Below are positions 3 to 60,750 of a stretch of DNA of 64,000 bases, one piece after another. A program made the position numbers and the translations under genes. Source of the stretch: a virus (Duplodnaviria > Caudoviricetes); the IMG/VR virus record IMGVR_UViG_3300005282_000001, positions 12,576-76,575 of that record. The stretch is one strand, 5' to 3'. How positions within the stretch are numbered: position 1 is the first letter of the stretch; every line of letters starts with the position of its first letter. A model generated the notes under the pieces. The model had not been told where the DNA came from and made no database searches. It was given only the letters and a program-made list of their open reading frames with translations.

Positions 3-3000
3 CTCCACTGCCATACCGACCAGAGCCTCCTAGACGGGTACGAAACGATCCAAGAGCTCGTAGGGCGTGCAAAGGAACTTGGGTATCCAGCAGTAGGCTT
101 ATCGGACCATGGGACAATGCGAGGGGTTGTCAAGTTTTACAAGGAGTGCCAAGCAGCCGGAGTGAAACCTATTGTTGGTTGCGAGTTTTACTTTTGCCCC
201 GATGTGACAATCAAGAGTAAGAACTATCACTTACTTTTGTTCGCTATGGATAACACAGGATACATGAACTTGAAACTGCTGGATTCCTTTGCATATCGTG
301 AGGAGAACTTCCACAATCGCCCAAGGATTGACGAGGATATCCTGCGGGAACATAGCGAAGGCATTGTATGCCTAACAGCTTGTATGGCGTCTATTGTGAA
401 TACTGAAGTTGGTGAAGAGTGGCTGCTGAAATTTAAGGATATCTTTGGCGACCGCCTATTCGCTGAGATTCAACCGTTGAACCTTGAGAAACAGCAGGTA
501 TACAATGGTAAAGTCGTGGAACTCGCAAGGAAACATGGGGTTCCATTAGTAGTTACCACAGATGCTCATTACGCTCGCAAGGAAGATGAAAAGTATCACC
601 AGGCGTGGACTATGATTCATGGGTTCCGCTATGATGACTATGAGAATTACTTATGGAGCGAAGAGGAAATCAGAAGTACCTCATGGATTCCTAAAGACAC
701 CATAGAGGAAGCAATAGGAAATACGCAACGAATCGCTGATATGTGTAATGTTACCATAGAAGTTGAAGGGAATCACTTTCCTAAGTATCCTGTAGAGAAT
801 GCGGTGGAAAAAGTTAAGGAAATCTGTAGAGAAAACTTTAGAGAACTAGTGCCACAAGGGAAATACAAGGAATATGGTGAGAGGTTCCATGATGAACTTA
901 GGGTACTCGAAAAGTTAGACTACTTGAATTACATGTTAATCGTATGGGACCTTATGGAATGGTGCAAGAACAATAGTATACCCACTGGTTATGGCAGAGG
1001 AAGTGCCAGTGGTTCACTTGTTGGATATCTTATGAGATTACACAAGATTGACCCTATAAAGTACGGAGTTGAGTTCTTTAGATTTGCTAATGAGTTCAGA
1101 AAAACCACGGCCGACATAGATTCAGATGTTTCCCGTAGACATCGCGGGGAAATTATAGAGTACGTTAAGAAACGCTATGGAACAGTTACCAAGGTTCAAA
1201 CTTTAGGGTATACTAAAAATCCCGAGAAGAATGATGTAGGTAAAGCAGCGGTACTTAAGGCTGTTCAGAGTCTTGGTGAGTTTGAGAAGGAATCCACAGG
1301 AGAAAAAGAAGCATTCATATGGACTCGTAAGAAAGCTATGGTAATTACAAAGAATCTACAAGAATCTCTTGAGGAAATCCTTACGATCCCATCAGAGTTT
1401 ACGCAAGAGCAACGTGAGGAACTGCTAGATATCGCAACACATTTCTTAGGGCGTGTGGTTATGACAGGTTGCCATGCAAGTGCTGTAGTTGTTACTCCAG
1501 ATGCCATAGAAAACTATTGTCCTGTTGAGGGAGCAAAAGTTCGTGATGCATCTACTGGAGAAACAACTTATACTTCTATGGCTGGCTATGAATACCACAC
1601 AGTTGAAGAAATGGGACTTATGAAACTTGATATACTTGGGTTGAATACTTTGGATATCATTGATGATGCCGTAAAGTACATTAAGGAGTTCCAAGGGATT
1701 GATGTGGATATTGACAAGATTATATTTGATGATCCAAAGGTGTTCGCAGAGTACGCAGCGGGAGAAACTACAGGGTTCTTCCAGATGGAATCATCAGGTA
1801 TGCGTAAGTTAGCTAAGGATATGAATGTATCAAGCTTTAAGGATACTTCTGCACTCGTGGCGTTGTTCCGTCCAGGCCCACTTGGTTCTGGTATGGCTCA
1901 ACAGTATGTCGATGGTAAAAATGGGGTAGAAATAAAGTATCCCAATGAAGCTATGAAGAAACACACGGAAGAAACATTTGGGGTTCTTGTGTATCAAGAG
2001 CAGATCATGAAGGTTGCTATGGATATGTGCGGATGGGACTTAGGGCAAGCAGATACTCTTAGGAAAATCATAGGACGCAAGGAAGTCACTAAGATAAATG
2101 AGATAACAGAACAATTCATTGTGGATTCTGTGAAGAATGGCGAAGATGAATCAGTTGCAAAAAAAGTAGCGGAACAAATAAAATCTGCTGGTAACTATGT
2201 TTTTAATAGATGTTTAAGCGGCAGAGAAACTATAAAACGCCAGACAATGAATGGTAGGTTCATGTCAATTGGTGAAATTTATAAAACTATGTATGATAAG
2301 CAGTGGGCTAAAGAGAATGGACATGCTGACTTACATTCCAAATACAAGAGGAACGGTTATGGCGGCGGATTATCAATGATTGATGGGAAGATACTTCCGA
2401 ATAAAATAGTTGACATAAGGTACACAGGAGAAATGGAAGTATACTTAGTGACTACAGAAACTGGTAAGAAACTAAGATGCACTATGAATCATAAGATACC
2501 AACGCCAAATGGTATAAAACAACTGTCAGAAATATCAGTTGGAGAACTTTTGTATGTCGATGGTGGCTATGATGCTTCTAAGAATAACTATAATTTGTAT
2601 TCTGAGTTAATGCCAGTGAACGCCGAAGTTGGACATGCCGGATTCACAAATAGACCAAATGGTAACTCAGTTAAGTTTGCAGACGCTAGATATTTTATGA
2701 AGAACATGATGGCTCCATGTGAACGCTGCGGTAAAATCTCTGGTTACAAAGCTGGATTTGAGTTACATCATATTGACAAGGATCGCGAGAATAATTCCAA
2801 TGAAAACCTCATGTGGTTATGCAATGGTTGTCACAAGAAGGAACATTACGCAAACGGTAGAACCAAAAGAGGCGAAAAGGGGCATTTGCTAGCAACAGAA
2901 TCAATAGTATCTATAGAGTACGAATGTACTGAAGATTGCTATGATGTTGAAATGGAAGCTCCTAATCACAACTTTGTTACAGGCGGAGGAATTATAGTAT

Positions 3001-3851
3001 GTAATTGTCACGCTGTAAGTTACTCAGCAGTTTCCTACATTACTGCTTATCTCAAGACATATTACCCAAGAGAGTACCTGTGTGCTACCTTGAACTCCAA
3101 GGATGACCAAAAGAAAATCATACCATACGTCAATGAACTCAAGCGTCTTAAGATTCCCTTGTATCCACCAGACTTATCCATAGGAAACCGCAGATGGACA
3201 TTAGAATCTGATGGTATCCGCGTGGGACTTGAGTATATCAGCGGAGTTGGCAAGAATCTCAAGACAGAGCATGTGGATACATTTGAATCCGTAGTGGAAT
3301 CCAACACGAAAACTTGTGTAATCCCATGTATCAAAGCAGGTGCCTTAGATTACCTTGGGTTATCACGTGCGGTTATGCTTGCGAAGTTCGCTGGTACACA
3401 AGAGAGTCTCAAGAGGGTACAGCAGTGCCAAGAGAAGATACAGCAGTACACAGGTGACCCTAAGAAGCTTAAGAACCTTCAGCAGTGGCAAGAGAAACTT
3501 AAGGATGCTCAAGAGATTCAGCAGGTCACTCCTGAGAAATACGATGTGACTGCTGGTGAGTGCGAAGTGTTATCCTTTAGTTTTCATGAGATTCCAAAGG
3601 TAAAAACTGGTGTAGTTACAAATGTGTTCACAAAGAATGATAAGAATTCACGAGAAATGGGATGGATTACCTTCAGTACAAACTATGGGGAATTCAGATG
3701 TACTGTATTTGCAGACGGATGGGAGCGTGTGGGTGCTCATGTAAAGCAAGGGGAATCATATAAGTTTGTCGTGAATGACAAGGGGATTCTTGAGGAATTA
3801 CAAGTGGATGGTAAGGTAATCAAAGTAAACGAAAGAAGGTACAAGAGATGA
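3..3851 (+). CDS. dnaE: DNA polymerase III alpha subunit (PHP + Pol III catalytic + short OB fold), 5'-truncated by the window edge, intein-containing
   Basis: The frame is open upstream of the listed ATG 117 and reads LHCHTDQSLLDG...SDHG (PHP start). It also has GYGRGSASGSLVGY, DIDSD, KLDILGL, GFFQMES, LVALFRPGP, GVLVYQEQIM and FNR-[intein]-CHAVSYS. Confidence 0.97.
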   Translation, partial: LHCHTDQSLLDGYETIQELVGRAKELGYPAVGLSDHGTMRGVVKFYKECQAAGVKPIVGCEFYFCPDVTIKSKNYHLLLFAMDNTGYMNLKLLDSFAYREENFHNRPRIDEDILREHSEGIVCLTACMASIVNTEVGEEWLLKFKDIFGDRLFAEIQPLNLEKQQVYNGKVVELARKHGVPLVVTTDAHYARKEDEKYHQAWTMIHGFRYDDYENYLWSEEEIRSTSWIPKDTIEEAIGNTQRIADMCNVTIEVEGNHFPKYPVENAVEKVKEICRENFRELVPQGKYKEYGERFHDELRVLEKLDYLNYMLIVWDLMEWCKNNSIPTGYGRGSASGSLVGYLMRLHKIDPIKYGVEFFRFANEFRKTTADIDSDVSRRHRGEIIEYVKKRYGTVTKVQTLGYTKNPEKNDVGKAAVLKAVQSLGEFEKESTGEKEAFIWTRKKAMVITKNLQESLEEILTIPSEFTQEQREELLDIATHFLGRVVMTGCHASAVVVTPDAIENYCPVEGAKVRDASTGETTYTSMAGYEYHTVEEMGLMKLDILGLNTLDIIDDAVKYIKEFQGIDVDIDKIIFDDPKVFAEYAAGETTGFFQMESSGMRKLAKDMNVSSFKDTSALVALFRPGPLGSGMAQQYVDGKNGVEIKYPNEAMKKHTEETFGVLVYQEQIMKVAMDMCGWDLGQADTLRKIIGRKEVTKINEITEQFIVDSVKNGEDESVAKKVAEQIKSAGNYVFNRCLSGRETIKRQTMNGRFMSIGEIYKTMYDKQWAKENGHADLHSKYKRNGYGGGLSMIDGKILPNKIVDIRYTGEMEVYLVTTETGKKLRCTMNHKIPTPNGIKQLSEISVGELLYVDGGYDASKNNYNLYSELMPVNAEVGHAGFTNRPNGNSVKFADARYFMKNMMAPCERCGKISGYKAGFELHHIDKDRENNSNENLMWLCNGCHKKEHYANGRTKRGEKGHLLATESIVSIEYECTEDCYDVEMEAPNHNFVTGGGIIVCNCHAVSYSAVSYITAYLKTYYPREYLCATLNSKDDQKKIIPYVNELKRLKIPLYPPDLSIGNRRWTLESDGIRVGLEYISGVGKNLKTEHVDTFESVVESNTKTCVIPCIKAGALDYLGLSRAVMLAKFAGTQESLKRVQQCQEKIQQYTGDPKKLKNLQQWQEKLKDAQEIQQVTPEKYDVTAGECEVLSFSFHEIPKVKTGVVTNVFTKNDKNSREMGWITFSTNYGEFRCTVFADGWERVGAHVKQGESYKFVVNDKGILEELQVDGKVIKVNERRYKR
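2211..3005 (+). mobile_element. Intein (265 aa) with HNH endonuclease in DnaE
   Basis: Starts CLSGRE after YVFNR, has TMNH block B, HNH motif CERCG...ELHHIDKDRENNSNENLMWLCNGCHKKEH, and ends HNFVTGGGIIVCN followed by Cys. Removal restores FNRCHA, equivalent to the FNKSHS motif of DnaE. Confidence 0.93.
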
Positions 3852-4525
3852 AATTTAAGGTTGGCGATGGAATTCGTATGGTAGAAAAGTACTGCGCAGC
3901 AGACAAAGGGATGATTGGAGAGATTAGAGGTGAATATGATGGATACAATGAGTATTGTGTATTCTTTCCACAGATGCTTAAGAAAAGCTATGGACACGAT
4001 TGCGATGGAGTGACTCCCGAGGGCGGCGGATACTACATTCCAGAGGATTGCATGGAGTTACTAGAGGAAACGCAAGAACAACCTTTAATACCAGTTGTTT
4101 CACTAGTGTCCCAGTTATCCCCTATTATACGCTTTGAATCACAGCAGCAACTTGAGGAATCACTTGCGGAATGGCAGAGCAGACTGTTGTTATCTGACTG
4201 GCTTATCATGGTAAAACTAGTTAATCCAGAGGAACTTGAGAAAGATGGAAAACTTATGGCTGGATTCAACAATTCTGAAGAAGTTCTTATGTCATCTGAG
4301 ATATCAATTGCGGACGGCGAGTTTCCCAATAGTGTAACCAAGGCGTGTGCAGAGGAAACTTTGATACATGAGTTGTTACATTTGAAATTACCAATGTTTA
4401 TCGTTGATGGATCTATTGAATCCTGCATGTATAATGATGGAGTTCATGCGACCATTGAGCAGCTCGCAAAGAGTCTATTGATGGCTAAGTATAACTTAAG
4501 TCTCTCATGGTTCAAAAACTTTTAA
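3848..4525 (+). CDS. Hypothetical protein: N-terminal module shared with 5337 ORF plus C-terminal HEXXH metallopeptidase-like domain
   Basis: EETLIHELLHL motif; first ~72 aa clearly similar to the N-terminus of 5337..6425. Confidence 0.7.
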   Translation: MKFKVGDGIRMVEKYCAADKGMIGEIRGEYDGYNEYCVFFPQMLKKSYGHDCDGVTPEGGGYYIPEDCMELLEETQEQPLIPVVSLVSQLSPIIRFESQQQLEESLAEWQSRLLLSDWLIMVKLVNPEELEKDGKLMAGFNNSEEVLMSSEISIADGEFPNSVTKACAEETLIHELLHLKLPMFIVDGSIESCMYNDGVHATIEQLAKSLLMAKYNLSLSWFKNF

Positions 4526-4533
4526 GAAATCGC

Positions 4534-4563
4534 TTGACAGTCGCAAGAAACCTGTGGTACACT
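4534..4563 (+). promoter_or_regulatory. Sigma-A-type promoter upstream of SSB
   Basis: TTGACA (4534-4539), 18-nt spacer, TG-extended TACACT (4558-4563). Confidence 0.75.
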
Positions 4564-4668
4564 AAGGAAGTCGAAAGGATGTGTTGTGGATGTCACGAGC
4601 GAGTCCGTGAGTGTTCATAGGATAAACTAAAGAAAACTAAAAAATACAAAAGATGGAGTGATGTATAC

Positions 4669-5241
4669 ATGGCAAATATCAAAGGTGTAGCAAAATGGCC
4701 AAAACTTGGAATTCCTAAGGACAACTATGATGAGTACAACAACAATGGCAAGAAAAACTATACAGTAGACTTGTATGTTACTGACGATGAACTTACGAAA
4801 TTCGAGAGTCAGTACCAAGCAGCATACGATACTATTGAAACGAATCCTAAGTATCAAAAGAATGGCAATCCACAAGAGTATCCTAAAGAAATGCTGTACA
4901 CACCTACAAGAGTTGATAAGGACGGTAAGAAGTTCATTAAATTCACCACTAAAGCATTCACAGACGATGGCGAACAGAAAACATTTCCATTGTTCGACTC
5001 TAAACTCGTGCCACTTGATAAACAAATGGCTAACGGGAGTGTCGTACAGGTAAACTATTCGCTCGCTGGTGTCCGTAACAATGTTAAAAATGCTGGGGTA
5101 TGCGCATATATGAACGCGATTTGCGTAGACAAACTTGTGGAATTCGGTAGCAAAGGTACACCAGATTCCTTTGGATTCGATGTGGAAGCCCCAGCGGATT
5201 CCTATGGATTCAGTGGTACTGAAGAAGAGAACCCAATCTGA
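4669..5241 (+). CDS. ssb: Single-stranded DNA-binding protein, T7 gp2.5-like
   Basis: AKWPKL, YTVDLYV, NGSVVQV...GVCAYMNAICV pattern, acidic C-terminal tail; replication context. Confidence 0.75.
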   Translation: MANIKGVAKWPKLGIPKDNYDEYNNNGKKNYTVDLYVTDDELTKFESQYQAAYDTIETNPKYQKNGNPQEYPKEMLYTPTRVDKDGKKFIKFTTKAFTDDGEQKTFPLFDSKLVPLDKQMANGSVVQVNYSLAGVRNNVKNAGVCAYMNAICVDKLVEFGSKGTPDSFGFDVEAPADSYGFSGTEEENPI

Positions 5242-5336
5242 TACATGGGAGTACATTTGTATTCCCATTGGGTGACAAAAGAAAACAAGCGGTTACGCAA
5301 GACGTAACGGACGACTGAAAGGAGTAGGGTAAACAA

Positions 5337-6425
5337 ATGAAATTCAAGAAAAATGATAATATTTGCATGGTAAAAACATATGATGCAGCAGATGAAGGAA
5401 TGATAGGAGAAATTAGAGGATACAAAAACAGTACTAAAGAGTATTGCGTGTTCTTCTCAGAAATGCTTAGGGGTGGCTATGGTCACAGATGTGGCGGGGT
5501 GATTCCTGAAGGTGGTGGACATTACATCCCAGAGGATTACATGGAGTTACCCATGACATTCCCACAGAAACTTGAGAAGTTCAAAAGAGAACGTGTGGGA
5601 TTCCATGTGGATACCAAAGAGATTGCTGATGAGTTACAAAAGGTATTCGATAAGGGAAAACTTAAGATGCATAAAGATGTAACAAAAAGAGCATGGGAAA
5701 CATTTGGGAACACAGGGAAACTATACGTTTCTTATAACTACTTCAATTATCCTAGGGTTGGCTTTGGATTATGTAATAGGACTGGAGTGAACCTCGACGA
5801 AATACTGCCGATTACCCTAGAGGAACTCAAGGAATACAATGGCCACCAGCAGACTACCATCACAATTACTTCCGATGGATACCATAGAGTTACCGCAGAA
5901 TCCAATGGTAAAACAGCAGAAGCCTTATGTAATCCAACGGATACATTTGATTTGGCTGAAGGAGCTAAGTTGGCAACCCAGCGGTTAACTGAGGAAGAAC
6001 CTAAGAAAGCAGATAAATTACCTAAGTTTTCCGTTGGAGACACTGTAGAGGTTATCAATGGTGGGCCAAATAATACTCCCGTGGAATCCAAAGGGATGCG
6101 AGGAAAAGTTACTTTGGCAGACAGTGAATATATCAGAGTTAGATTTGATAAACCAATGAGCAACTCATATGTGACGATAACTGATTTCTCATATTATCCT
6201 CAGGACCTCAAGTTAGTTCCCAAGGATGAACCTATGTTTCACAAAGGTGATCTTGTGGAAGTCATCGGAGAAAGTTCTCATACGAAGGGTTCAATCGGAC
6301 TACAAGGGGTTGTTATGGAAGACGATGCCTTTCCATTTGTTACATTAGTGACCAAGGTAAACGGGAGTAATTGTTGGTCATATCGTCAGGGAAATCTTAA
6401 GCTTATCCGTAGAGCTAACGACTGA
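5337..6425 (+). CDS. Modular hypothetical protein (modules A-B-C-D-D; D is KOW/SH3-like)
   Basis: Shares blocks with 3848, 7439 and 14224 ORFs; repeated KFxxGDxVEV motifs. Confidence 0.7.
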   Translation: MKFKKNDNICMVKTYDAADEGMIGEIRGYKNSTKEYCVFFSEMLRGGYGHRCGGVIPEGGGHYIPEDYMELPMTFPQKLEKFKRERVGFHVDTKEIADELQKVFDKGKLKMHKDVTKRAWETFGNTGKLYVSYNYFNYPRVGFGLCNRTGVNLDEILPITLEELKEYNGHQQTTITITSDGYHRVTAESNGKTAEALCNPTDTFDLAEGAKLATQRLTEEEPKKADKLPKFSVGDTVEVINGGPNNTPVESKGMRGKVTLADSEYIRVRFDKPMSNSYVTITDFSYYPQDLKLVPKDEPMFHKGDLVEVIGESSHTKGSIGLQGVVMEDDAFPFVTLVTKVNGSNCWSYRQGNLKLIRRAND

Positions 6426-6463
6426 GGTTCACTGGAAAACTTCTGATATCTTTTCTGCTTCCC

Positions 6464-6874
6464 ATGAGTACTCTGGGGCACACGTATTATGACTTAGGAC
6501 CAATCATAAGCTACCCTACTGAAATACGCTCAGAGACGCTTGTAGGAACTGTAGAAGAAACTGATGCTGCACAAGATAAGTACCATAAATATAGAGAAGT
6601 AGCTATGGAGGTTTCTTATTATACAAATAACGATGAAGGAATGGATGGACGTGGGATAACAGCGATGGGAACAATGACAACTCAGGGACGAACTATAGCT
6701 ATGTCTACTCAGTATGAACTAGGGACACGAATAATTATTGATGGACACGAATATGTTAATGAAGATACAGGCTCCTATATTGTAGGCAACAGAGTAGATA
6801 TATATGTGGAAGATAAAGAGACCGCTTATAGACTTGGGAGAGTTACAAAAATAGTTAAAGTGGAGAGCGATTAA
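6464..6874 (+). CDS. 3D (Asp-Asp-Asp) domain cell-wall-active protein
   Basis: EVSYYT, GITAMG, TIAMS, LGTRIIIDG, EDTGSYIVGNRVDIYV. The frame is open back to CTG 6422, which would add a signal-peptide-like RFTGKLLISFLLP. Confidence 0.85.
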   Translation: MSTLGHTYYDLGPIISYPTEIRSETLVGTVEETDAAQDKYHKYREVAMEVSYYTNNDEGMDGRGITAMGTMTTQGRTIAMSTQYELGTRIIIDGHEYVNEDTGSYIVGNRVDIYVEDKETAYRLGRVTKIVKVESD

Positions 6875-6875
6875 C

Positions 6876-7367
6876 ATGGGAAAGTTAAAAGATTTAACTG
6901 GAATCAAGATTAACAGACTAACAGTATTAAAAAGAGTGGAAAACGATATAAATAATAATACAAGATGGCTATGTAAATGTGACTGTGGAAATGAAGTAGT
7001 TGTAATCGGCGATAACCTTAGAAGGGGTACTACAAAGTCGTGCGGATGTTACAATAGAGAAGTTGTGTCAAAAGCTAGGTATAAACATGGGCACAGTGAC
7101 CCTAGTAATAAAACATATAATAGCTGGAGAGCAATGATCCAAAGGTGTGACAATCCGAAGAACAATAGGTTTTTTGCATATGGCGGAAGAGGAATAAGAG
7201 TTTGCCAAGAATGGTATGAGTTTGAGAACTTCTTGGCAGATATGGGAGAAAGGTCTGACGGTAAGTCTATTGATCGTATTAATGTTGATTTGAATTATTG
7301 CAAAAGCAACTGTAAATGGTCAACTCCTAAGGAACAAGCTAATAATAGAAGAAATTCAAAAAGATAA
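6876..7367 (+). CDS. Free-standing HNH homing endonuclease
   Basis: WLCKCDCG...KSCGC, YNSWRAMIQRC, YGGRGI, SIDRINVDLNYCKSNCKW. Confidence 0.9.
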   Translation: MGKLKDLTGIKINRLTVLKRVENDINNNTRWLCKCDCGNEVVVIGDNLRRGTTKSCGCYNREVVSKARYKHGHSDPSNKTYNSWRAMIQRCDNPKNNRFFAYGGRGIRVCQEWYEFENFLADMGERSDGKSIDRINVDLNYCKSNCKWSTPKEQANNRRNSKR

Positions 7368-7452
7368 TCGCATAGATATTTATATGGAAAACAAAAGAGA
7401 TGCTGATGAATTCGGCAGAAAATATATGGAGGTGTCTTATGACATTCGCTGA
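7366..7452 (+). pseudogene. Orphaned second copy of the 3D gene 3' end
   Basis: Reads NRIDIYMENKRDADEFGRKYMEVSYDIR* versus NRVDIYVEDKETAYRLGR at 6788-6841. Confidence 0.8.
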
Positions 7453-8365
7453 TAAACTAAAGAAATTCAAAAGTGAACGTGTGGGGTTCAAGGTAGAAAC
7501 TGAGGAAATCGCTAAGGGGTTGGCTGAGGTATTTCAGATGGAGGGATTATTATCATCCATCGGTCTTTCTCCAGTCGAACTAATGAATGTTGCGTGGGAA
7601 GAATACAGTAATGATGACCTATGGGTAGCTGCTAATTATCCTGGAGATACTGTGGAATTGTCTTATGGTACCTGTAAAAAATCTGGAAAGTATCTCGACA
7701 GTATCCTATCTGTTACTTCTCAAGAACTCCAGCGATATCTTAAGATTCGCAAGGGAATCCAAGAGAATCCAGAAGTATACTTCCCAACGCCCACAAAAGA
7801 AATTTATGATGAGCTAATGAATACGCTGGATAGCCTGGGGTGCCTGTGGATGTGCGGAGAAAAACCTATGGAGTACAATGGGTTCACTAGTGATCATAAG
7901 ATTTGCGTAAGGTACTCAACAGATATCATGATAGATGGTTATGATGCTGGCAAAGACAATATCATCAGTCTTACCTCAGAACCCCCTACGCCATCCCAAA
8001 CGATTACAATTGTATCTGATGGATATCACAAGGTAACAGCAGAATCCAATGGAATTACCGCAGAAGCTACATGCTGCCCAACAGATACGTTTAGTATCAC
8101 TAAGGGAACTCATATGGCATTGCAGAGATTACTTGAGAAACAGAAGAAAGCTGAAGAGAAGCCTAAGTTTAACAGAGGGGATATTGTAGAGGTAATCGTT
8201 GGGGGATTAGATGGGACTCCTAGTGCTACCACAGGGTTACAGGGGAAAGTTATGCAGACATCTATATTTCCAGAAGTGTTGTTCCCGATTACCATTGGAG
8301 CTAGAAACTTCTGGGCTTTCCGTCAAGATGTTCTCAAGCTTATCCGTAGAAAACCATGCAAGTAA
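7439..8365 (+). CDS. Modular hypothetical protein (modules B-B-C-D)
   Basis: GGAGGTG RBS before ATG 7439 (MTFADK); blocks similar to 5337 ORF. Confidence 0.7.
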   Translation: MTFADKLKKFKSERVGFKVETEEIAKGLAEVFQMEGLLSSIGLSPVELMNVAWEEYSNDDLWVAANYPGDTVELSYGTCKKSGKYLDSILSVTSQELQRYLKIRKGIQENPEVYFPTPTKEIYDELMNTLDSLGCLWMCGEKPMEYNGFTSDHKICVRYSTDIMIDGYDAGKDNIISLTSEPPTPSQTITIVSDGYHKVTAESNGITAEATCCPTDTFSITKGTHMALQRLLEKQKKAEEKPKFNRGDIVEVIVGGLDGTPSATTGLQGKVMQTSIFPEVLFPITIGARNFWAFRQDVLKLIRRKPCK

Positions 8366-8694
8366 CCCCAGAATCCTTAAGAACTCTAAAGCAATCACAG
8401 CAGGTGCAAAAGACTACATTGTTATTCTTTGAGAAAGCAGCGGAAAAACCAGCGTTTATACATGGGAAACCTACGAGCGGATTCTTTGCAGTTCGCTCGT
8501 TTTTCTCAAAGCAAACACTGGAATCTCTGCACCTTATCTTTGATTATCTATGGGAACTTAAGGAAAAACAAACGATGACCATGAGTGATTGCTTTGAGAA
8601 CGCAAGGAAATACCAAGAGGAACTACGGTGGGATAACAAGAGTGGAATAACAGTAGCTTATGAAGACTATAGAAAATTACTGGAGGATATGTGA
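8356..8694 (+). CDS. Hypothetical protein
   Basis: ORF overlapping both neighbours in operon style. Confidence 0.5.
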   Translation: MQVTPESLRTLKQSQQVQKTTLLFFEKAAEKPAFIHGKPTSGFFAVRSFFSKQTLESLHLIFDYLWELKEKQTMTMSDCFENARKYQEELRWDNKSGITVAYEDYRKLLEDM

Positions 8695-9560
8695 TGGAAT
8701 TTGAAAAGTATATGCATGTGGAACGCTTAGGGAAAGAAGATGTCGAAGGGATTACCAGTGGAACATGTTATGTATTTCCTAAGATTGACGGGACTAATGG
8801 GCAGATTTACATGGATAACGGTGAGTTACACTTTGGATCACGCAAGAGAGAATTAAGTATTACAAGTGATAACGCTGGATTCATGAATACTCTTAAGGAT
8901 GACAGCAGATATGTAGAGTATTTTAATAAGTATCCAGAGAGACGCTTGTATGGCGAGTGGTTAGTACCACATACTATCAAAGGTTATTCCGATAATGCAT
9001 GGAGAAAATTCTATGTATTCGATGTGGAATCAGAAGGGAAACTATTGGCATACAATGAGTATGTAGAGTCACTTAAGGAACTTGAGATAGACTATGTTCC
9101 TGTGCAGGTCATCCTAGAAAACCCTACAGATGAACAATTGAAAAAGCAAATGGAATCTAATGAGTTCCTTATGGACACTGGAATTGGCGAAGGAATTGTT
9201 GTGAAAAATTATGAATTCCATAACAAGTATGGGAATCAAGTATGGGGCAAAATGATTTCTGCTGAATTTAAGGTTAAACATAAGTTACCAAGCAATTCTG
9301 AGGTAGTACCTATTGAATTTACATTTGTTGAACAGCTGTGTACTGAAGCGTTTGTTCAAAAGGAATTCGCTAAGGTTTGCATTGATGAACCATGGGAACA
9401 GAAGAAAATCCCTATGTTAATTTCTAAGGTATTTCATGAGTTAATCAATGAGGAACTATGGGATTTCTTAAAGAAGCATAAGAATCCAACGATTAACTTT
9501 AGAGTTCTGCAAGGTGCTGTGGTCGATAAGATTAAACTTAGTTTACCACAAGTATTCTAA
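8691..9560 (+). CDS. RNA ligase (Rnl2-like nucleotidyltransferase)
   Basis: Motif I KIDGTN, III LYGEW, IIIa FYVFDV, IV EGIVVK, V GKMIS. Confidence 0.8.
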   Translation: MMEFEKYMHVERLGKEDVEGITSGTCYVFPKIDGTNGQIYMDNGELHFGSRKRELSITSDNAGFMNTLKDDSRYVEYFNKYPERRLYGEWLVPHTIKGYSDNAWRKFYVFDVESEGKLLAYNEYVESLKELEIDYVPVQVILENPTDEQLKKQMESNEFLMDTGIGEGIVVKNYEFHNKYGNQVWGKMISAEFKVKHKLPSNSEVVPIEFTFVEQLCTEAFVQKEFAKVCIDEPWEQKKIPMLISKVFHELINEELWDFLKKHKNPTINFRVLQGAVVDKIKLSLPQVF

Positions 9561-51364: not shown

Positions 51365-52352
51365 CTTCCTTAGTATTCAACAGATATCTGCTTTGATGTT
51401 GCTGTATTCTCCAGTACCTTTTATCAGAATACGTAGGTTGTTTTTTGAACCATGTGGGCATAAAAGATGTCCTTTTGCTTTGGTTGCAAATTTTGCAGGT
51501 TGGAACAATATTGAACACGGCATCGCACAGGTCAGGGTGTTCACGACTCATAACAGACTGAGGTATTATATGTTCAGCCATAAGAGTTTCATGCGACTCT
51601 CCACAGTAAGCACACTTGTGGTCAAATTCCTCAAGCGTTCTATTCCACTCAACCGAATTACCAAAGCAACCATTAAGCGACACAGGATATCCATCTGTGC
51701 TCCTTGTCATCGTATGTGTTTCAAAGCCAACCACAAGTTCCTGCACGTGTTCCAATGATAAATTAACAACAATCCAGTCTCTCACAGGTATTCTTATGGA
51801 ATTAGCATAAGGAACCTTAACTCCACACCATTTGCCTATGTCATCATAAAAAGTTCTCACACGGTCAATTCCTGTGGCTTGCTTATAACGTGTCAACAGG
51901 TTTTCCATAGTATATCTAGGTGCCACAAATGGTCTTAAGATGCCAGCGGCAGACAATTGTTCTTCAAGGCGAATAACTCTTTTGAGCACCTCTGGTTGAC
52001 TATCACTACTTGACGATTCGATAATGTCCCACACAAAATCCATAAGCTGATTAGCTTTTCTTTGACGACTCCATCTGCATATCTCAAGTACACCTCTCAA
52101 AGAATAAACAACTGTTTCTCTCGTTATTTCTCTGGTTCCCTCAACTGTGGTTACTTTAGTCACAGTTGAAAGTCCGTCAAGTCTATCGCTATGCGCCCTG
52201 TGTATCTTCTCGATTGCCCTGTTAGGATCAGCATACTCTAATGAGTCACCTATTTGCTTGCGTGATATAAATTTGTCACCGCTATTATCGGAATATATTT
52301 CACACAAGTTACCATTGAAAGAAGATACCTTTGAAATAACTAAGTTATTCAA
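51348..52352 (-). CDS. Bro-N domain + C-terminal HNH endonuclease
   Basis: ISRKQIGDSLEYADP...ANQLMDFVWDII; CAYCG...EHIIP...NIVPTCKICNQSK. Confidence 0.8.
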   Translation of the reverse strand: MNNLVISKVSSFNGNLCEIYSDNSGDKFISRKQIGDSLEYADPNRAIEKIHRAHSDRLDGLSTVTKVTTVEGTREITRETVVYSLRGVLEICRWSRQRKANQLMDFVWDIIESSSSDSQPEVLKRVIRLEEQLSAAGILRPFVAPRYTMENLLTRYKQATGIDRVRTFYDDIGKWCGVKVPYANSIRIPVRDWIVVNLSLEHVQELVVGFETHTMTRSTDGYPVSLNGCFGNSVEWNRTLEEFDHKCAYCGESHETLMAEHIIPQSVMSREHPDLCDAVFNIVPTCKICNQSKRTSFMPTWFKKQPTYSDKRYWRIQQHQSRYLLNTKEGVISG

Positions 52353-52967
52353 TAGACTTGTAATCCTCTATAATCTCTTCTCTTGCTAGGATGATACAGT
52401 CCTCATTATATTGAGGTAATTTTGGAAACTTAATCTGCACCCCTTGTTCCTGAAGGTAGATAAGTTTCGACTGGAGCACATCTATTTGGTCATAAAGATT
52501 ACTGATATACTCTTTAATAATAAAGTTTTTCTTATGAATTACACTAGATAATGAATCAACTCTATTTTCTATATCCTTTTTAGTTACATCGAACTTATTG
52601 TTATTTTCTTTTATTTCTTCAACACGCTTATCATAGTATAATTGCCTAACTATCTCTTCCATGCCAGAACCTATTTCTTTAATTTCCGGCTCTATATTCC
52701 ACCTAGATAACTCTAGTGTAGACGCATATTTAACTACCTCATCGTAGCTTATATCAACCACTCTCCAATGGATCTGTTTTCATTAAAGTGATTATGAAAA
52801 AATGTCTCTAACTTACTATATTGATGCAATTCTGGAGTAATATACTTTCTTACTACCTTATAACCAGAGATCATTTGAATACTCATTATTCTCTTTTCTG
52901 GATCTACACTTTTACCTATTTTTACTCTACCATTCTCATTTTCTATTACATACACATATCCAGCCAT
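52345..52967 (-). pseudogene. T5orf172/GIY-YIG-like gene split by a 1-nt frameshift
   Basis: YVYVI...KIGKS...GEW continues as DISYDEVV in the adjacent frame at ~52758. Confidence 0.65.
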
Positions 52968-53030
52968 TTAATCTCTCCTTAGTTATATTTTAGGTTCCAA
53001 CTGTCCCTAAAGTAGTCACAGTTGCATAAC

Positions 53031-53062
53031 AAAAGAGCACCCAAGATTTCTCTCAAGTGCTC
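53031..53062 (-). terminator. Intrinsic terminator closing the large non-coding region
   Basis: GAGCAC...GTGCTC-TTTT. Confidence 0.75.
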
Positions 53063-53675
53063 ACTTCACTTCTATTGGGTAGTCGTGAATTACGACACCC
53101 ATACATAGTTTCCTATGTCTTCATATCTATCATGCAGTATCAGTTGGTTATCCAAGGCACACCACGTGGAGGTTCTGCTGCCGTGCCTCATTTGGGTGAG
53201 AGTTTATTTTAGTGTGCCCCACCCATCACACCTGTGCCGTAGCCCCTACCGCGCTTATCGGCTATCCTTAGCTTCCCCAATGCGTCCATTGAATACTGCC
53301 GTGTACTTTGGCATCCTAAGGTCTGCATTAAATCCCTTGTCACAGTCAAGGCAACTGTTAGTCCTGCCCCACGCCATCGCATGAACTCGTGAGAACCATT
53401 AACAGCGTTTTATGTGTGCTCTCCACATCATCGAGCAATCCCTAAGACTGCTCTTGTTCTCCCCGTGTTACTTATGGATACCTACGAGCACCCATCGTAA
53501 CCTGTGGATTTTTATAGTGCGCTATTACAACATGGGCGACCCTGAGGTTTTCCACGGATTACCACCACAAGCACTACAGACGCCATCCTGCGTTTCTATG
53601 GATGTTCGTAGACATTCCATACGGCTCCTTAACGTTCATCCCTTTGATATTACATATCGGGTTAATGGAGACCCT
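53035..53675 (-). ncRNA. Candidate large structured non-coding RNA (~640 nt), family not identified
   Basis: No credible gene; many nested helices (53103-53118, 53076-53101, 53134-40/53293-99, 53155-60/53183-88, 53266-71/53316-21, 53433-53453, 53515-20/53571-76); terminator at 3' end. Confidence 0.7.
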
Positions 53676-53679
53676 TATG

Positions 53680-53898
53680 TTACTTTTGTTTATCTACAGC
53701 TTTACCATAGATTTTCTCTTCAAGTCCCTCATATCTACTCAAGTCTTTCTCTTGTCTTGCTATGAGCTTCTGTTGAGTTTCCAATAGGCTTGCCATGTAA
53801 TAATCCAACATTTCACTCATGTTGCCTATCTGTTCAACCAACTGTTCAACACTGGCTTCGTCCATAGTATCCTCCGCGAATCTCTTGTAGATCCTCAC
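53680..53898 (-). CDS. Hypothetical coiled-coil protein (likely start MDEASV)
   Basis: GGAGG RBS. Confidence 0.55.
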   Translation of the reverse strand: MRIYKRFAEDTMDEASVEQLVEQIGNMSEMLDYYMASLLETQQKLIARQEKDLSRYEGLEEKIYGKAVDKQK

Positions 53899-53986
53899 GC
53901 TTCTTATGATATTCCTTGAGTTCTTTTTTGAGATTCTTATGTTTTTCTTTAGGTTTCTTATGTTTCTCGCGTTCTTCTAAGCTCAC
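53846..53986 (-). CDS. Small Lys/Glu-rich peptide (46 aa, not in ORF track)
   Basis: GGGAGGT RBS, GTGA overlap with phoH. Confidence 0.5.
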   Translation of the reverse strand: MSLEEREKHKKPKEKHKNLKKELKEYHKKREDLQEIRGGYYGRSQC

Positions 53987-54666
53987 ACTTGTACCTCCCG
54001 TGGCATACTTTCGGCTCTCCGTGACATCTTACCACGGTAATCAGTTTCCAACGTTACTTTAGAACCCCATGAAGGTTCACTCATGTATTCCCCAAAGCGT
54101 TCAAATGAACTATCTTGGCGTTTATTGTCAAGTTGCTTAGAATCCCCACAGTACACACATGTACAATTGTCATGTAATCTCGTTAGGACTAACTTAATGT
54201 CATCATATGTTCCATTCTGTGCTTCATCAATGATAACTCCACAGTTCTCTAGGTTAACCCCACGCAACCCAATGTCACTTGTGAGACGTAAGGTATCATC
54301 AGCTCTCATGATATCAATGTGTTCCGGTTGTATTCCAAGTGTAATCAGTGCGTCATACACTGGTGTCCACATGGTTCTACACTTGTCTTCAAGAGTACCA
54401 GGAAGGAACCCTTGTTTTCTATCGCGGTCACTTGGGAATCTCACATAAATTATTCTTTGGATTTTCTCTTCAGATAACATGTTGATTAACGCATGAAATC
54501 CAATGAGCGTCTTTCCAGTACCGCAGATTGCATTACAGTACACAAATGACTTGTCAAGAATACTTTGGTAATACACGCGTTGGTACTGGTCATATCTATT
54601 GAATATCTTATCGCGTTCTTTTGTGTCCTTAAGTAATACCATAAGGTCTAGCTCACGTTTGAACAT
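53983..54666 (-). CDS. phoH: PhoH-family ATPase
   Basis: GTGKT, GFLPG, RGVNL, IIDEAQN, GDSKQLD. Confidence 0.93.
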   Translation of the reverse strand: MFKRELDLMVLLKDTKERDKIFNRYDQYQRVYYQSILDKSFVYCNAICGTGKTLIGFHALINMLSEEKIQRIIYVRFPSDRDRKQGFLPGTLEDKCRTMWTPVYDALITLGIQPEHIDIMRADDTLRLTSDIGLRGVNLENCGVIIDEAQNGTYDDIKLVLTRLHDNCTCVYCGDSKQLDNKRQDSSFERFGEYMSEPSWGSKVTLETDYRGKMSRRAESMPREVQV

Positions 54667-54684: not shown

Positions 54685-55515
54685 TTATTTACTTATACAA
54701 GACTTACTACGGAATTTCTTTTGTACAGGTAAAAATAGTTCTTCTACTGTTTTCCCTGCATAATATCTATACTGAAGAGTTTGATACTGGATTCCAATAG
54801 CTTCTGCCCATTGTTTCAATGTCCTAGTTTCTCCCATGTATTTTATTTTAATATTTCTAGTAGTGTTGTTTGCTTGTTGTTTTGGAGTTGCCCACCGGCA
54901 ATTATCTTTACTATAGTTATCATTGACATCTATCCTATCTATTGAATGCAAGTGTGTAGGGCTTTTCCCCATATCTCTATAAAAATTCATAAAAGAATTT
55001 TTCCATTCATCAGACATCGTTATACCTCTTCCTCCATAGTATTTATACGAATCTTTATTACTATTATAGCAACGGTCCTTAATACATCTCCATATACTAA
55101 ATTCCCTTGTTTTATACATTCCATGTTTTGTTATTCTATCTAGGTTATAACATCCACAACTTTTTGTCTTTCCGCTTTTTAGTGCATCTGTTTTCACCTC
55201 TACAATGTTTCCACAGTCACATATACATTTCCACTTTAACCAATTATTTCTACCAGTATACACTTTACCTATAACTGTTAGCCTTGCAAACTTACTACCA
55301 ATTAAATCTAAAGAGGTTTCGTGCATAACTTCATCATGATAGCATCCGCAAGACAAAGTTACCCCTCTTATAAGACTAGCTCCTAATACCGTTACATAGT
55401 TTCCACATTCGCACTGACAGTTCCATCTGGACTTACCAGCTTTACTATTGTCTGCCCTACTTATAATACTAAGTCTTCCGAACTTCTTTCCAGTTAAATC
55501 TACTACATTACTCAC
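54685..55515 (-). CDS. Free-standing HNH homing endonuclease with duplicated N-terminal Zn module
   Basis: Two W.C.CDCG...SCGC units, YGGRGI, SIDRIDVNDNYSKDNCRW. Confidence 0.9.
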   Translation of the reverse strand: MSNVVDLTGKKFGRLSIISRADNSKAGKSRWNCQCECGNYVTVLGASLIRGVTLSCGCYHDEVMHETSLDLIGSKFARLTVIGKVYTGRNNWLKWKCICDCGNIVEVKTDALKSGKTKSCGCYNLDRITKHGMYKTREFSIWRCIKDRCYNSNKDSYKYYGGRGITMSDEWKNSFMNFYRDMGKSPTHLHSIDRIDVNDNYSKDNCRWATPKQQANNTTRNIKIKYMGETRTLKQWAEAIGIQYQTLQYRYYAGKTVEELFLPVQKKFRSKSCISK

Positions 55516-60324: not shown

Positions 60325-60750
60325 TCAATAGTATTCATTAAGAATCATTCTATAGACTCTCATGTTAGGGCAATGAGTTTTAAAGAAATCTTTATCATTC
60401 CCTAGATATATCTTAGATAATGCAGCAGCTACACCAGCACTTCTGGACACTCCAGCTTCACAGTTAACAACTATAGATGTCTCATGGAAGTCCTCTACGA
60501 ACGCTAAGATAAGCTTAGCCATCACTGTTGTAAATAACCTAGGTTTCCTATCGGATATCAATAGAGTACTGAAGTCCTCCCCTGGGTACTTATCGGTATC
60601 TAGGTCGTCAAATAGTAACTTTAGTGTGCCCTTACGCTTTTCATTAGGCGGCAATTGTATATTCTTATCAGTTCCAATGGATATTGCAATATGTTCTGTA
60701 GTAAACCTAGCTACTTCTGCTTCTCTTGCGGATATTGCTATTATTTTCAT
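60325..60750 (-). CDS. CX5R (tyrosine/dual-specificity-type) phosphatase
   Basis: VVNCEAGVSRSAG active-site motif; FDD general-acid loop. Confidence 0.85.
   Translation of the reverse strand: MKIIAISAREAEVARFTTEHIAISIGTDKNIQLPPNEKRKGTLKLLFDDLDTDKYPGEDFSTLLISDRKPRLFTTVMAKLILAFVEDFHETSIVVNCEAGVSRSAGVAAALSKIYLGNDKDFFKTHCPNMRVYRMILNEYY

Follow-up and report, generated by a model that had tools for sequence, protein, structure and literature searches.

An uncatalogued structured phage RNA in a cassette with a predicted minimal HDV-like ribozyme

The DNA analysed here, referred to as the window, is a 64,000-nucleotide (nt) stretch that comprises bases 12576-76575 of a 76.6-kb linear phage record of IMG/VR. 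On its minus strand it carries a non-coding interval (53679-53030) that contains a conserved structured RNA, in the following termed the core, and a putative self-cleaving ribozyme of the hepatitis delta virus (HDV)-like, theta type. The gene order on this strand is an open reading frame (ORF) of 208 amino acids (aa), an HNH endonuclease gene, phoH, two ORFs of 46 and 61 aa and the interval, followed by a T5orf172/GIY-YIG-like gene, an HNH/Bro-N endonuclease gene and terL (Table 1). An initial annotation, made from the sequence alone, had placed one RNA of ~640 nt at 53035-53675. The stretch itself is real, if slightly longer than proposed, but it does not correspond to one molecule: its first ~200 nt are a lineage-only insertion, the conserved core comprises ~275 nt, and the HDV-like ribozyme had been missed. 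We regard the interval as a cassette of separate elements, including one stable-RNA gene, and not as a 640-nt RNA.

The general properties of the interval had been described correctly. It lacks a credible ORF, it is richer in GC than its surroundings (0.475 versus 0.401 for the genome; sliding windows 0.47-0.51 inside, with the peak at 0.51, and 0.31-0.43 in the flanks), and it ends in an intrinsic terminator. The GAAA-capped stem that had been noted is present as well, both in the terminator and in the hairpin 53118-53103. The predicted minimum free energy of the interval is -209 kcal/mol, with z = -3.2 versus dinucleotide shuffles. ARAGORN found no tRNA or tmRNA gene in the window, and Rfam at gathering scores gave no match in the whole window.

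Table 1. Features of the cassette and its neighbourhood (positions in the window; bp, base pairs)
Feature	Position	Strand	Description
HNH endonuclease gene	54685-55515	-	phrog_374; between putative terS and phoH
phoH	53983-54666	-	
46-aa ORF	53846-53986	-	very basic, Lys-rich; overlaps phoH at its stop and the 61-aa ORF at its start
61-aa ORF	53680-53865	-	directly upstream of the RNA; conserved anchor for retrieving relatives
5' rod hairpin	53477-53679	-	long, imperfect; ~47 predicted pairs
Core RNA	53190-53464	-	~275 nt, multi-helix; RNAalifold on A4, model R1 realigned as A6
P-a	53461-53456 with 53396-53391	-	6 bp; encloses variable 5' domain
P-b	53386-53361	-	hairpin with G-rich loop
Window-only hairpin insert	53357-53326	-	private 28-nt hairpin
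P-c	53321-53316 with 53271-53266	-	closes a three-way junction with P-d and P-e
P-d	53315-53295	-	9-nt loop AAAGUACAC
P-e	53291-53278	-	CAAUG-GACG-CAUUG
P-f	53264-53240	-	hairpin; 15-nt G-rich loop ending GGU(R)GG
Terminal hairpin/pseudoknot	53231-53212 with 53202-53194	-	last element before the predicted cut site
Putative minimal HDV-like theta-type ribozyme	53189-53132	-	58 nt, directly 3' of core
P1	53189-53183 with 53160-53154	-	7 bp; G1-U wobble (G53189, U53154)
P2	5' strand within 53182-53174, 3' strand 53138-53132	-	
P3	53173-53171 with 53163-53161	-	3 bp
L3	53170-53164	-	UCCACGU
P1.1	C53169 and C53168 with G53152 and G53153	-	
L4	53151-53144	-	AUAACCAA, 8 nt
Predicted catalytic cytosine	C53143	-	first position of J4/2, in CUGAU
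Two hairpins after ribozyme	53077-53118	-	ACAUAG-GAAA-CUAUGU; GGGUGUCGU-AAUUC-ACGACUACCC; variable 'cargo' slot
Intrinsic terminator	53030-53062	-	12-bp stem, GAAA loop, U tract; ends cassette
Conserved leader of next gene	52968-53029	-	ribosome-binding site
T5orf172/GIY-YIG-like homing endonuclease gene	52345-52967	-	Pfam and PHROG matches; neighbour, outside the RNA

Relatives of the locus were gathered by protein searches with PhoH and with the 61-aa ORF, the latter yielding 50 variants, followed by contig look-ups in Logan, ENA and JGI. This resulted in ~20 contigs from independent samples (L004, L007, L008, L011-L023, L030 and L041-L044), apparently of sewage or gut origin; record names such as HEND19 and MUNK22 look like those of global sewage surveys, a resemblance of the names alone. 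The contigs show the same order of 61-aa ORF, core, ribozyme, cargo and terminator, and in every contig with enough sequence the 61-aa ORF is followed by the motif AAAGTACAC and then by the ribozyme motif. The spacing varies from 128 to 391 nt between the 61-aa ORF and AAAGTACAC and from 153 to 377 nt between AAAGTACAC and the ribozyme.

The core was aligned in A4, A5 and A6, the last being the realignment to model R1, which detects one copy in the window and the core in every relative. Covariation among homologues, a check that the initial annotation had proposed, supports the fold. In A6, standard pairs occupy 90.6% of the 479 pair cells of helices P-b to P-f, as compared to 28-46% in slid controls, and 15 of the 33 pairs are changed on both sides, which none of 500 shuffles equalled. 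P-a covaries from GAGAAC/GUUCUC to GAUAAC/GUUAUC and GAGAGU/ACUCUC, contributing three covarying pairs. The long-range pairing CCTTAG/CTAAGG that had been listed earlier is real, covaries and is identical to P-c, which reads CCUUAG/CUAAGG in the window and CCCUAC/GUA-C-GGG in the type-B relatives. In P-e an A-U pair is exchanged for G-C and a C-G pair for U-A. The terminal element is built from GUGUG...CACAC and GGGUG/CACCC in the window and from GCGA...UCGC and CAUGGG/CCCAUG in L004, both of type A, with a long hairpin in its place in type B.

In all lineages, five core helices remain paired through compensatory changes, and the stems vary around a 9-nt loop and junction nucleotides that are constant; the P-d loop is identical in all relatives except L042. 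Several hairpins of the core show similar G-rich loops (GGUGG, GGUAGG). Across the relatives sequence identity is lower in the core (74-81%) than in phoH (81-90%) while core pairing is kept, a pattern that would be expected of an RNA selected for structure. The core is thus a genuine, uncatalogued structured RNA supported by covariation, and the earlier suggestion of a new large RNA class fits it, as it matches no catalogued family. From its start to the predicted cut site it spans roughly 245-460 nt in the relatives, as estimated from coordinates. No tRNA-like 3' end was seen. Two pairings of the P-d loop were considered and rejected, one with GUGUAC of a type-B module, which shows no covariation and where L042 changes the loop only, and one with phage mRNAs, as the matches in the genome are at chance level.

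Both the G-U pairs and the gene orientation fit the minus strand only, which bears on the idea that the interval functions at the level of DNA, for instance as a pac site or an origin, or hides a protein-coding gene. It does lie between the putative terS and terL, and GC-rich non-coding DNA of a packaging module can hold pac sites; strand-specific G-U pairs and helix-wise compensatory changes, however, point to RNA, and an HDV-like ribozyme is meaningful only as RNA. Gene callers placed ORFs of 51-84 aa inside the interval in L013, L018 and L019, but these small ORFs are not conserved. In the window all three minus-strand frames contain stops, the longest stop-to-stop frame within 53030-53680 being 66 aa, and a 120-aa frame on the plus strand continues into the upstream gene and has no conserved counterpart in relatives. 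Moreover, the relatives differ from the window by indels of 1, 2, 28 and 207 nt, lengths that are not all multiples of three. We consider this explanation extremely improbable.

In E-value mode the only notable Rfam match was HDV-F-prausnitzii (53189-53130; 22.6 bits, E-value 0.14), covering the full length of the model minus P4. With 12 of 15 P4 positions missing the score stays below the gathering score of RF02682 (44 bits); P1, P3, L3 and the J4/2 cytosine align with those of drz-Fpra-1/HDV-F-prausnitzii (RF02682), whereas its 15-nt P4 hairpin is replaced by a short, constant L4 of 8 nt. The genome contains one copy of the ribozyme.

We aligned 14 ribozyme sequences (A3, then A8 after realignment to model R2). 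In the columns of A8 common to all sequences, 99% of the pair cells are standard pairs (slid controls, 22-50%), and P1, P2 and P3 each hold a pair that is changed on both sides. P1 occurs in three compensating versions, GAGGCAC/GUGCCUU in the window, GAAGUGU/ACACUUU in L004 and GAGGGA/UCCCUU in type B; P2 shifts from AUGCAG/CUGCAU to GUACAG/CUGUAC in L030, and P3 from ACC/GGU to GCC/GGC. The G1-U wobble closing P1 is found in 14/14 sequences and so is the J4/2 cytosine, which aligns with the family cytosine in Rfam and precedes a variable base. L3, UCC(A/C)CGU, and the GG of P1.1 are constant, and the L3 format U-CC-NCGU is identical to that of published entries. With its double pseudoknot, the G-U wobble, L3/P1.1, the catalytic C and the absent P4, the element at 53189-53132 is, judged by its sequence features, a minimal HDV-like ribozyme of the theta type, and self-cleavage that relies on the catalytic C is predicted for this locus.

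The assignment also accounts for a further helix of the initial annotation, GCAGTAT/ATACTGC. Both strands are present, but they do not form a functional helix: ATACTGC consists of J4/2 and P2, and most relatives have unrelated sequence in place of its proposed partner. CUGAUGA-like strings in the relatives raised the possibility of a hammerhead ribozyme, which was rejected, since there is neither a GAAA nor a stem III and the motif varies to CUGAUGG.

ROOL and GOLLD RNAs are highly structured, several hundred nt long, phage-borne and often adjoin tRNA genes, and the initial annotation had offered membership in these families as one of two options, next to a new class. Similar size, phage origin and tRNA genes near the locus in some relatives would be compatible with a divergent version of a known large RNA (ROOL, GOLLD, OLE, raiA or HEARO), and a genome rich in homing endonucleases with a group I or II intron. 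However, neither gathering scores nor a threshold of E <= 10 gave an Rfam match to a known large RNA for the window, L007 and L008, and compared with ROOL and GOLLD this RNA, which has no detectable homology to them, is smaller, modular, found in only one phage clade and predicted to have its 3' end set by a ribozyme. As to an intron, TerL is whole, with its Walker A and B motifs present, the flanking ORFs are complete and separate in the relatives, Rfam matched no intron model in the window, and neither group I/II core motifs nor a split host gene were found, in agreement with the absence of intron hallmarks noted initially; a split terminase or intron insertion was rejected on the same ground of a complete TerL. 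A known large RNA or an intron is therefore highly improbable.

Kienbeck et al. (2024; PMC10879173) reported 7,704 non-tRNA-associated theta ribozyme sequences, with no role given. These were located in non-coding regions, in most cases separated by >200 nt from the nearest ORF, and were stated to 'likely serve unknown biological functions'. In the same study in vitro self-cleavage was found for four theta ribozymes, all tRNA-associated, and a ribozyme at the tRNA 3' end was proposed to mature tRNAs in gut phages. The supplementary lists print the theta ribozymes split by domain. In the portion of these lists available to us, the non-tRNA-associated ribozymes share the domain layout of 53189-53132 and are near-identical in sequence, the common layout being P1, J1/2, P2, (A/G)CC, U, CC, NCGU, GG(U/C), P1', GG, AUAACCAA, CUGAU, P2'. 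Entries 1954 and 2224 of Supplementary Data File 2 (non-tRNA-associated) differ by a few bases from the L030 and L004/L011 copies, and AUAACCAA occurs as L4 field at least 173 and at least 78 times in the two lists; the exact variant of the window is not among the matches listed. From the published domain parse it follows that the catalytic C would be at 53143 and the predicted cut between U53190 and G53189.

The same mechanism has been proposed for tRNA-associated theta ribozymes, in which a ribozyme directly downstream of a stable RNA cleaves at its 5' edge and thereby generates the mature 3' terminus of this RNA; by analogy it may apply here. The upstream RNA differs, as it is not a tRNA according to ARAGORN and Rfam, and with no tRNA in the window the predicted cut is not within 5 nt of a tRNA 3' end, as in the tRNA-associated subgroup. 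The published isolated theta ribozymes are metagenomic reads from non-coding DNA, whereas here the upstream partner is a conserved RNA of 245-460 nt in a promoter-to-terminator cassette. As far as the searchable literature shows, a pairing of such a ribozyme with a conserved large RNA has not been described. The kind of ribozyme is already published, and the family of the core RNA is new.

A pattern scan of IMG/VR for the ATAACCAA subfamily, to which this ribozyme belongs, yielded 52 copies in 44 contigs, all with perfect P1 pairing, and Rfam at gathering scores detects none of them. Four of the 52 are located at the 3' end of a tRNA-Met, approximately 14 follow ORF-poor stretches of at least 300 nt that are often GC-rich or inside tRNA islands, and most of the remaining copies follow sequence with long open frames. 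In seven contigs (L056, L057, L065, L070, L075, L085 and L093) the stretch of 300 nt immediately upstream of the ribozyme has a higher GC content than the remainder of the locus, for instance 0.55 versus 0.38 in L075. The upstream stretches of L056 and L070 are also ORF-poor (longest frame 55-61 aa), and the ribozymes of L056, L065 and L093 are in tRNA islands. These seven loci are candidates for further ribozyme-ended RNAs.

The other parts of the cassette are modular. Alignments A1 and A9 show the 5' rod to be an insertion that, besides the window, only L011 and L012 contain; L004 and all type-B relatives lack it. Its apical stem changes from CGUGG/CCAUG to CGUAAG/CUUACG, and four G-U pairs of the rod fit a minus-strand RNA. 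The pairing TAGTGC/GCACTA that the initial annotation had pointed out lies in this predicted rod and is conserved in L011, with no variation by which the pairing could be judged. Between P-f and the ribozyme, the type-B relatives contain additional structured modules, one or two in number and 100-250 nt long. The cargo slot 3' of the ribozyme contains small hairpins in the window and L015, remnants of Rha genes in L008, L011, L016 and others, an intact Rha-like gene in L030 and a tRNA-Met in L008 and L018. At the DNA level, conservation within the region is highest in the terminator and in the leader of the downstream gene, with 91-95% identity in relatives. In L043 this leader reads as a promoter-like site, CTGACT-17-TAAAAT; the same scan detected none at the corresponding position of the window.

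Three observations concern the cargo slot itself. In L030 (~4490-4700) the intact gene for a Rha-family regulator is located directly 3' of the ribozyme. Rha remnants of 30-60 nt (GATGT.TCCAATTTTGG...GATGTTTTAT) are found in L008, L011, L016, L019 and L043, sometimes repeated as mini-hairpins. The tRNA-Met (CAU) genes at L008:1644-1715 and L018:1417-1488, the only tRNAs found in the relatives, lie 7-50 nt 3' of the ribozyme within the same promoter-to-terminator unit, so that the order, ribozyme then tRNA-Met, is the reverse of the published one.

A mosaic of this kind could also have arisen if the segment from phoH to terL were an insertion hot spot in which remains of mobile elements and genes have piled up; the ribozyme and the terminator would then be its only functional parts, and the fold would be incidental. 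The 5' rod, the private 28-nt hairpin and the type-B modules differ among relatives, Rha-gene remnants follow the ribozyme, and homing endonuclease genes flank the region. Debris would, however, not be expected to show compensatory changes in five core helices in all lineages, nor loop and junction nucleotides that stay constant next to variable stems, and the core is found in every relative with enough sequence to show it. We regard incidental folding of such remnants as very improbable.

Most relatives provide the cassette with its own promoter. In 14 of 19 relatives a sigma-70 promoter matching 11 of 12 positions (TTGACA-17-TATCAT or TTTACA-17-TATAAT) overlaps the end of the 61-aa ORF, with the -35 box in the last codons of this ORF in most of them, and all 19 share the terminator, indicating that the RNA gene is independent there. 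The distance from the end of the -10 box to P-a is 0-7 nt, which would make P-a the 5' end of the RNA. The window, L004, L011, L013 and L044 have no strong promoter (best 7-8/12), and in the window the inserted 5' rod parts the old -35 box from the -10 box. In this phage the phoH operon is probably transcribed through into the RNA, so that the co-expression with terS, phoH and terL suggested initially would hold at most for this phage and does not extend to most relatives. A small ORF behind a Shine-Dalgarno-like GAGGAG at the start of the RNA was rejected, as it is not conserved.

The read-through raises the question of whether the cassette serves the message on which it lies. In a cis processing or insulation module the ribozyme would sever the early phoH-ORF46-ORF61 message and the folded RNA would be a protective 3' untranslated region (UTR), its structure together with the cyclic phosphate blocking 3' exonucleases; in L030-like phages the ribozyme would also give the downstream mRNA a structured 5'-OH end. 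In line with this, the window lacks a promoter of its own, and the RNA would here be the tail of the phoH operon transcript. Furthermore, the Rha-like gene of L030 follows the ribozyme with a ribosome-binding site and without a terminator between them, and most of the 52 ATAACCAA ribozymes come after long open frames, suggesting that mRNA punctuation is common. Among these, L087 (IMGVR_UViG_3300043442_000931) has eight ATAACCAA-type ribozymes in 8 kb (1724-9216), mostly behind long open frames, an array that suggests operon punctuation. On the other hand, a dedicated 11/12 promoter together with a terminator, as present in most relatives, would be senseless for a 3' UTR, and a fold of 250-460 nt that combines a three-way junction and near-invariant loops with 15 covarying pairs far exceeds what an exonuclease block needs. 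The core is also kept where the downstream gene has decayed to remnants. Such a cis function appears unlikely, if less so than the alternatives considered above.

We therefore favour a stable-RNA cassette in which a cis-acting ribozyme makes the 3' end of a new phage RNA, a reading that we consider likely. In this phage, transcription of the phoH operon would most likely run on into the cassette, and in most relatives transcription would start at the dedicated sigma-70 promoter, giving a multi-helix transcript that, here, would consist of the 5' rod hairpin and the ~275-nt core. As the polymerase advances, the 58-nt ribozyme would fold into its double pseudoknot and cut at its own 5' edge, U53190/G53189, freeing the core with a precise 3' end and a 2',3'-cyclic phosphate without any host nuclease, while ribozyme, cargo and terminator would remain on a separate 5'-OH fragment. 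The freed RNA, presumably stable, may then act in trans via its fold, most likely as a protein-binding scaffold or decoy during infection. We favour a role in trans because most relatives have a dedicated promoter and terminator, because the RNA persists where neighbouring genes decay, and because G-rich loops are repeated and loop and junction bases near-invariant.

Several observations weigh against this reading. The window lacks the strong promoter, its best match being 7/12. In P2 of the window only 4/7 pairs form, compared to 6-7 in the relatives, and activity of this ribozyme may therefore be lower. P-f is absent in L016, L020 and L044, and the ease with which modules come and go means that some portions of the interval may not be needed. 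Moreover, all sequences come from one phage clade and fall into ~4-5 lineages, so that few independent compensatory events are represented.

Among the neighbouring genes, the 208-aa ORF, which had initially been named terS, gave no family match. Neither did the 46-aa ORF, which is kept as an ORF of 43-46 aa in all relatives and could, from its basic sequence, be a nucleic-acid binder. The T5orf172/GIY-YIG-like gene is frameshifted near 52749-52779, with ...SIGEWLI* in one frame and ...DISYDEVVKY in the next, resulting in ORFs of 72 and 138 aa; the gene is intact at 203-209 aa in L011, L014, L041 and L043, and the split copy is either a pseudogene or an assembly error. The HNH gene upstream of phoH looks like a recent homing endonuclease insertion, because relatives carry a 94-aa ORF at this position.

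Elsewhere in the genome, a gene for a 289-aa RNA ligase (8691-9560, plus strand; PF09414, 65.9 bits; phrog_548) adjoins a primase-helicase gene; it had no NCBIfam match and no usable PDB sequence match. An RNA ligase of the DRB0094 family was reported to be 140-fold enriched in phages with theta ribozymes (PMC10879173), and the tie to the present ligase is only a lead. No RtcB or reverse transcriptase gene was found in the genome. A 141-aa ORF (60325-60750, minus strand; phrog_5614, function unknown) shows a weak, sub-threshold match to the catalytic loop of dual-specificity phosphatases (19.5 bits versus a cut-off of 33.5).

Searches beyond the relatives delimit the distribution of the core. 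The closest IMG/VR relatives by TerL, L002 and L003 (58% and 50% identity), have neither core nor ribozyme within 8 kb of TerL, and model R1 detected no core in the 44 IMG/VR contigs that bear the same ribozyme subfamily. No match was obtained in phage GenBank by blastn with a 651-nt query, in IMG/VR by a PhoH-based search, or in IMG/VR with an exact 20-mer of the ribozyme. The core pattern AAAGTACAC...TGGANGCANTGG gave only two chance matches in IMG/VR, both in coding DNA, and one true match (L030) along with 16 chance matches, without a core according to model R1, in the JGI metagenomes; one of these chance matches, L028/L038, considered as a mini-homologue of the core, was rejected as it lies in a HEAT-repeat ORF. 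In GTDB, with one genome per species, the core pattern gave nine chance matches, none passing model R1, and the ribozyme pattern no copy, and thus no prophage or host clue, which fits a non-integrating phage clade. As far as found, the core RNA is restricted to one clade of uncultured phages, and this limits the reach of what follows.

The new family of 245-460 nt, backed by covariation, joins a short list of large phage non-coding RNAs. Tentatively, the core may be the first described member of a group of large phage RNAs that owe their 3' ends to minimal HDV-like ribozymes, and it would itself act in trans, as scaffold, decoy or ROOL/GOLLD-like multimer. The locus offers a role for orphan theta ribozymes, most likely in 3'-end formation of a large structured RNA, and the system is small enough for direct tests. 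It also suggests a cheap route to discovery, namely through the sequence upstream of orphan HDV-like ribozymes: if the proposal is true, the thousands of published isolated theta ribozymes would be beacons for undiscovered structured RNA genes.

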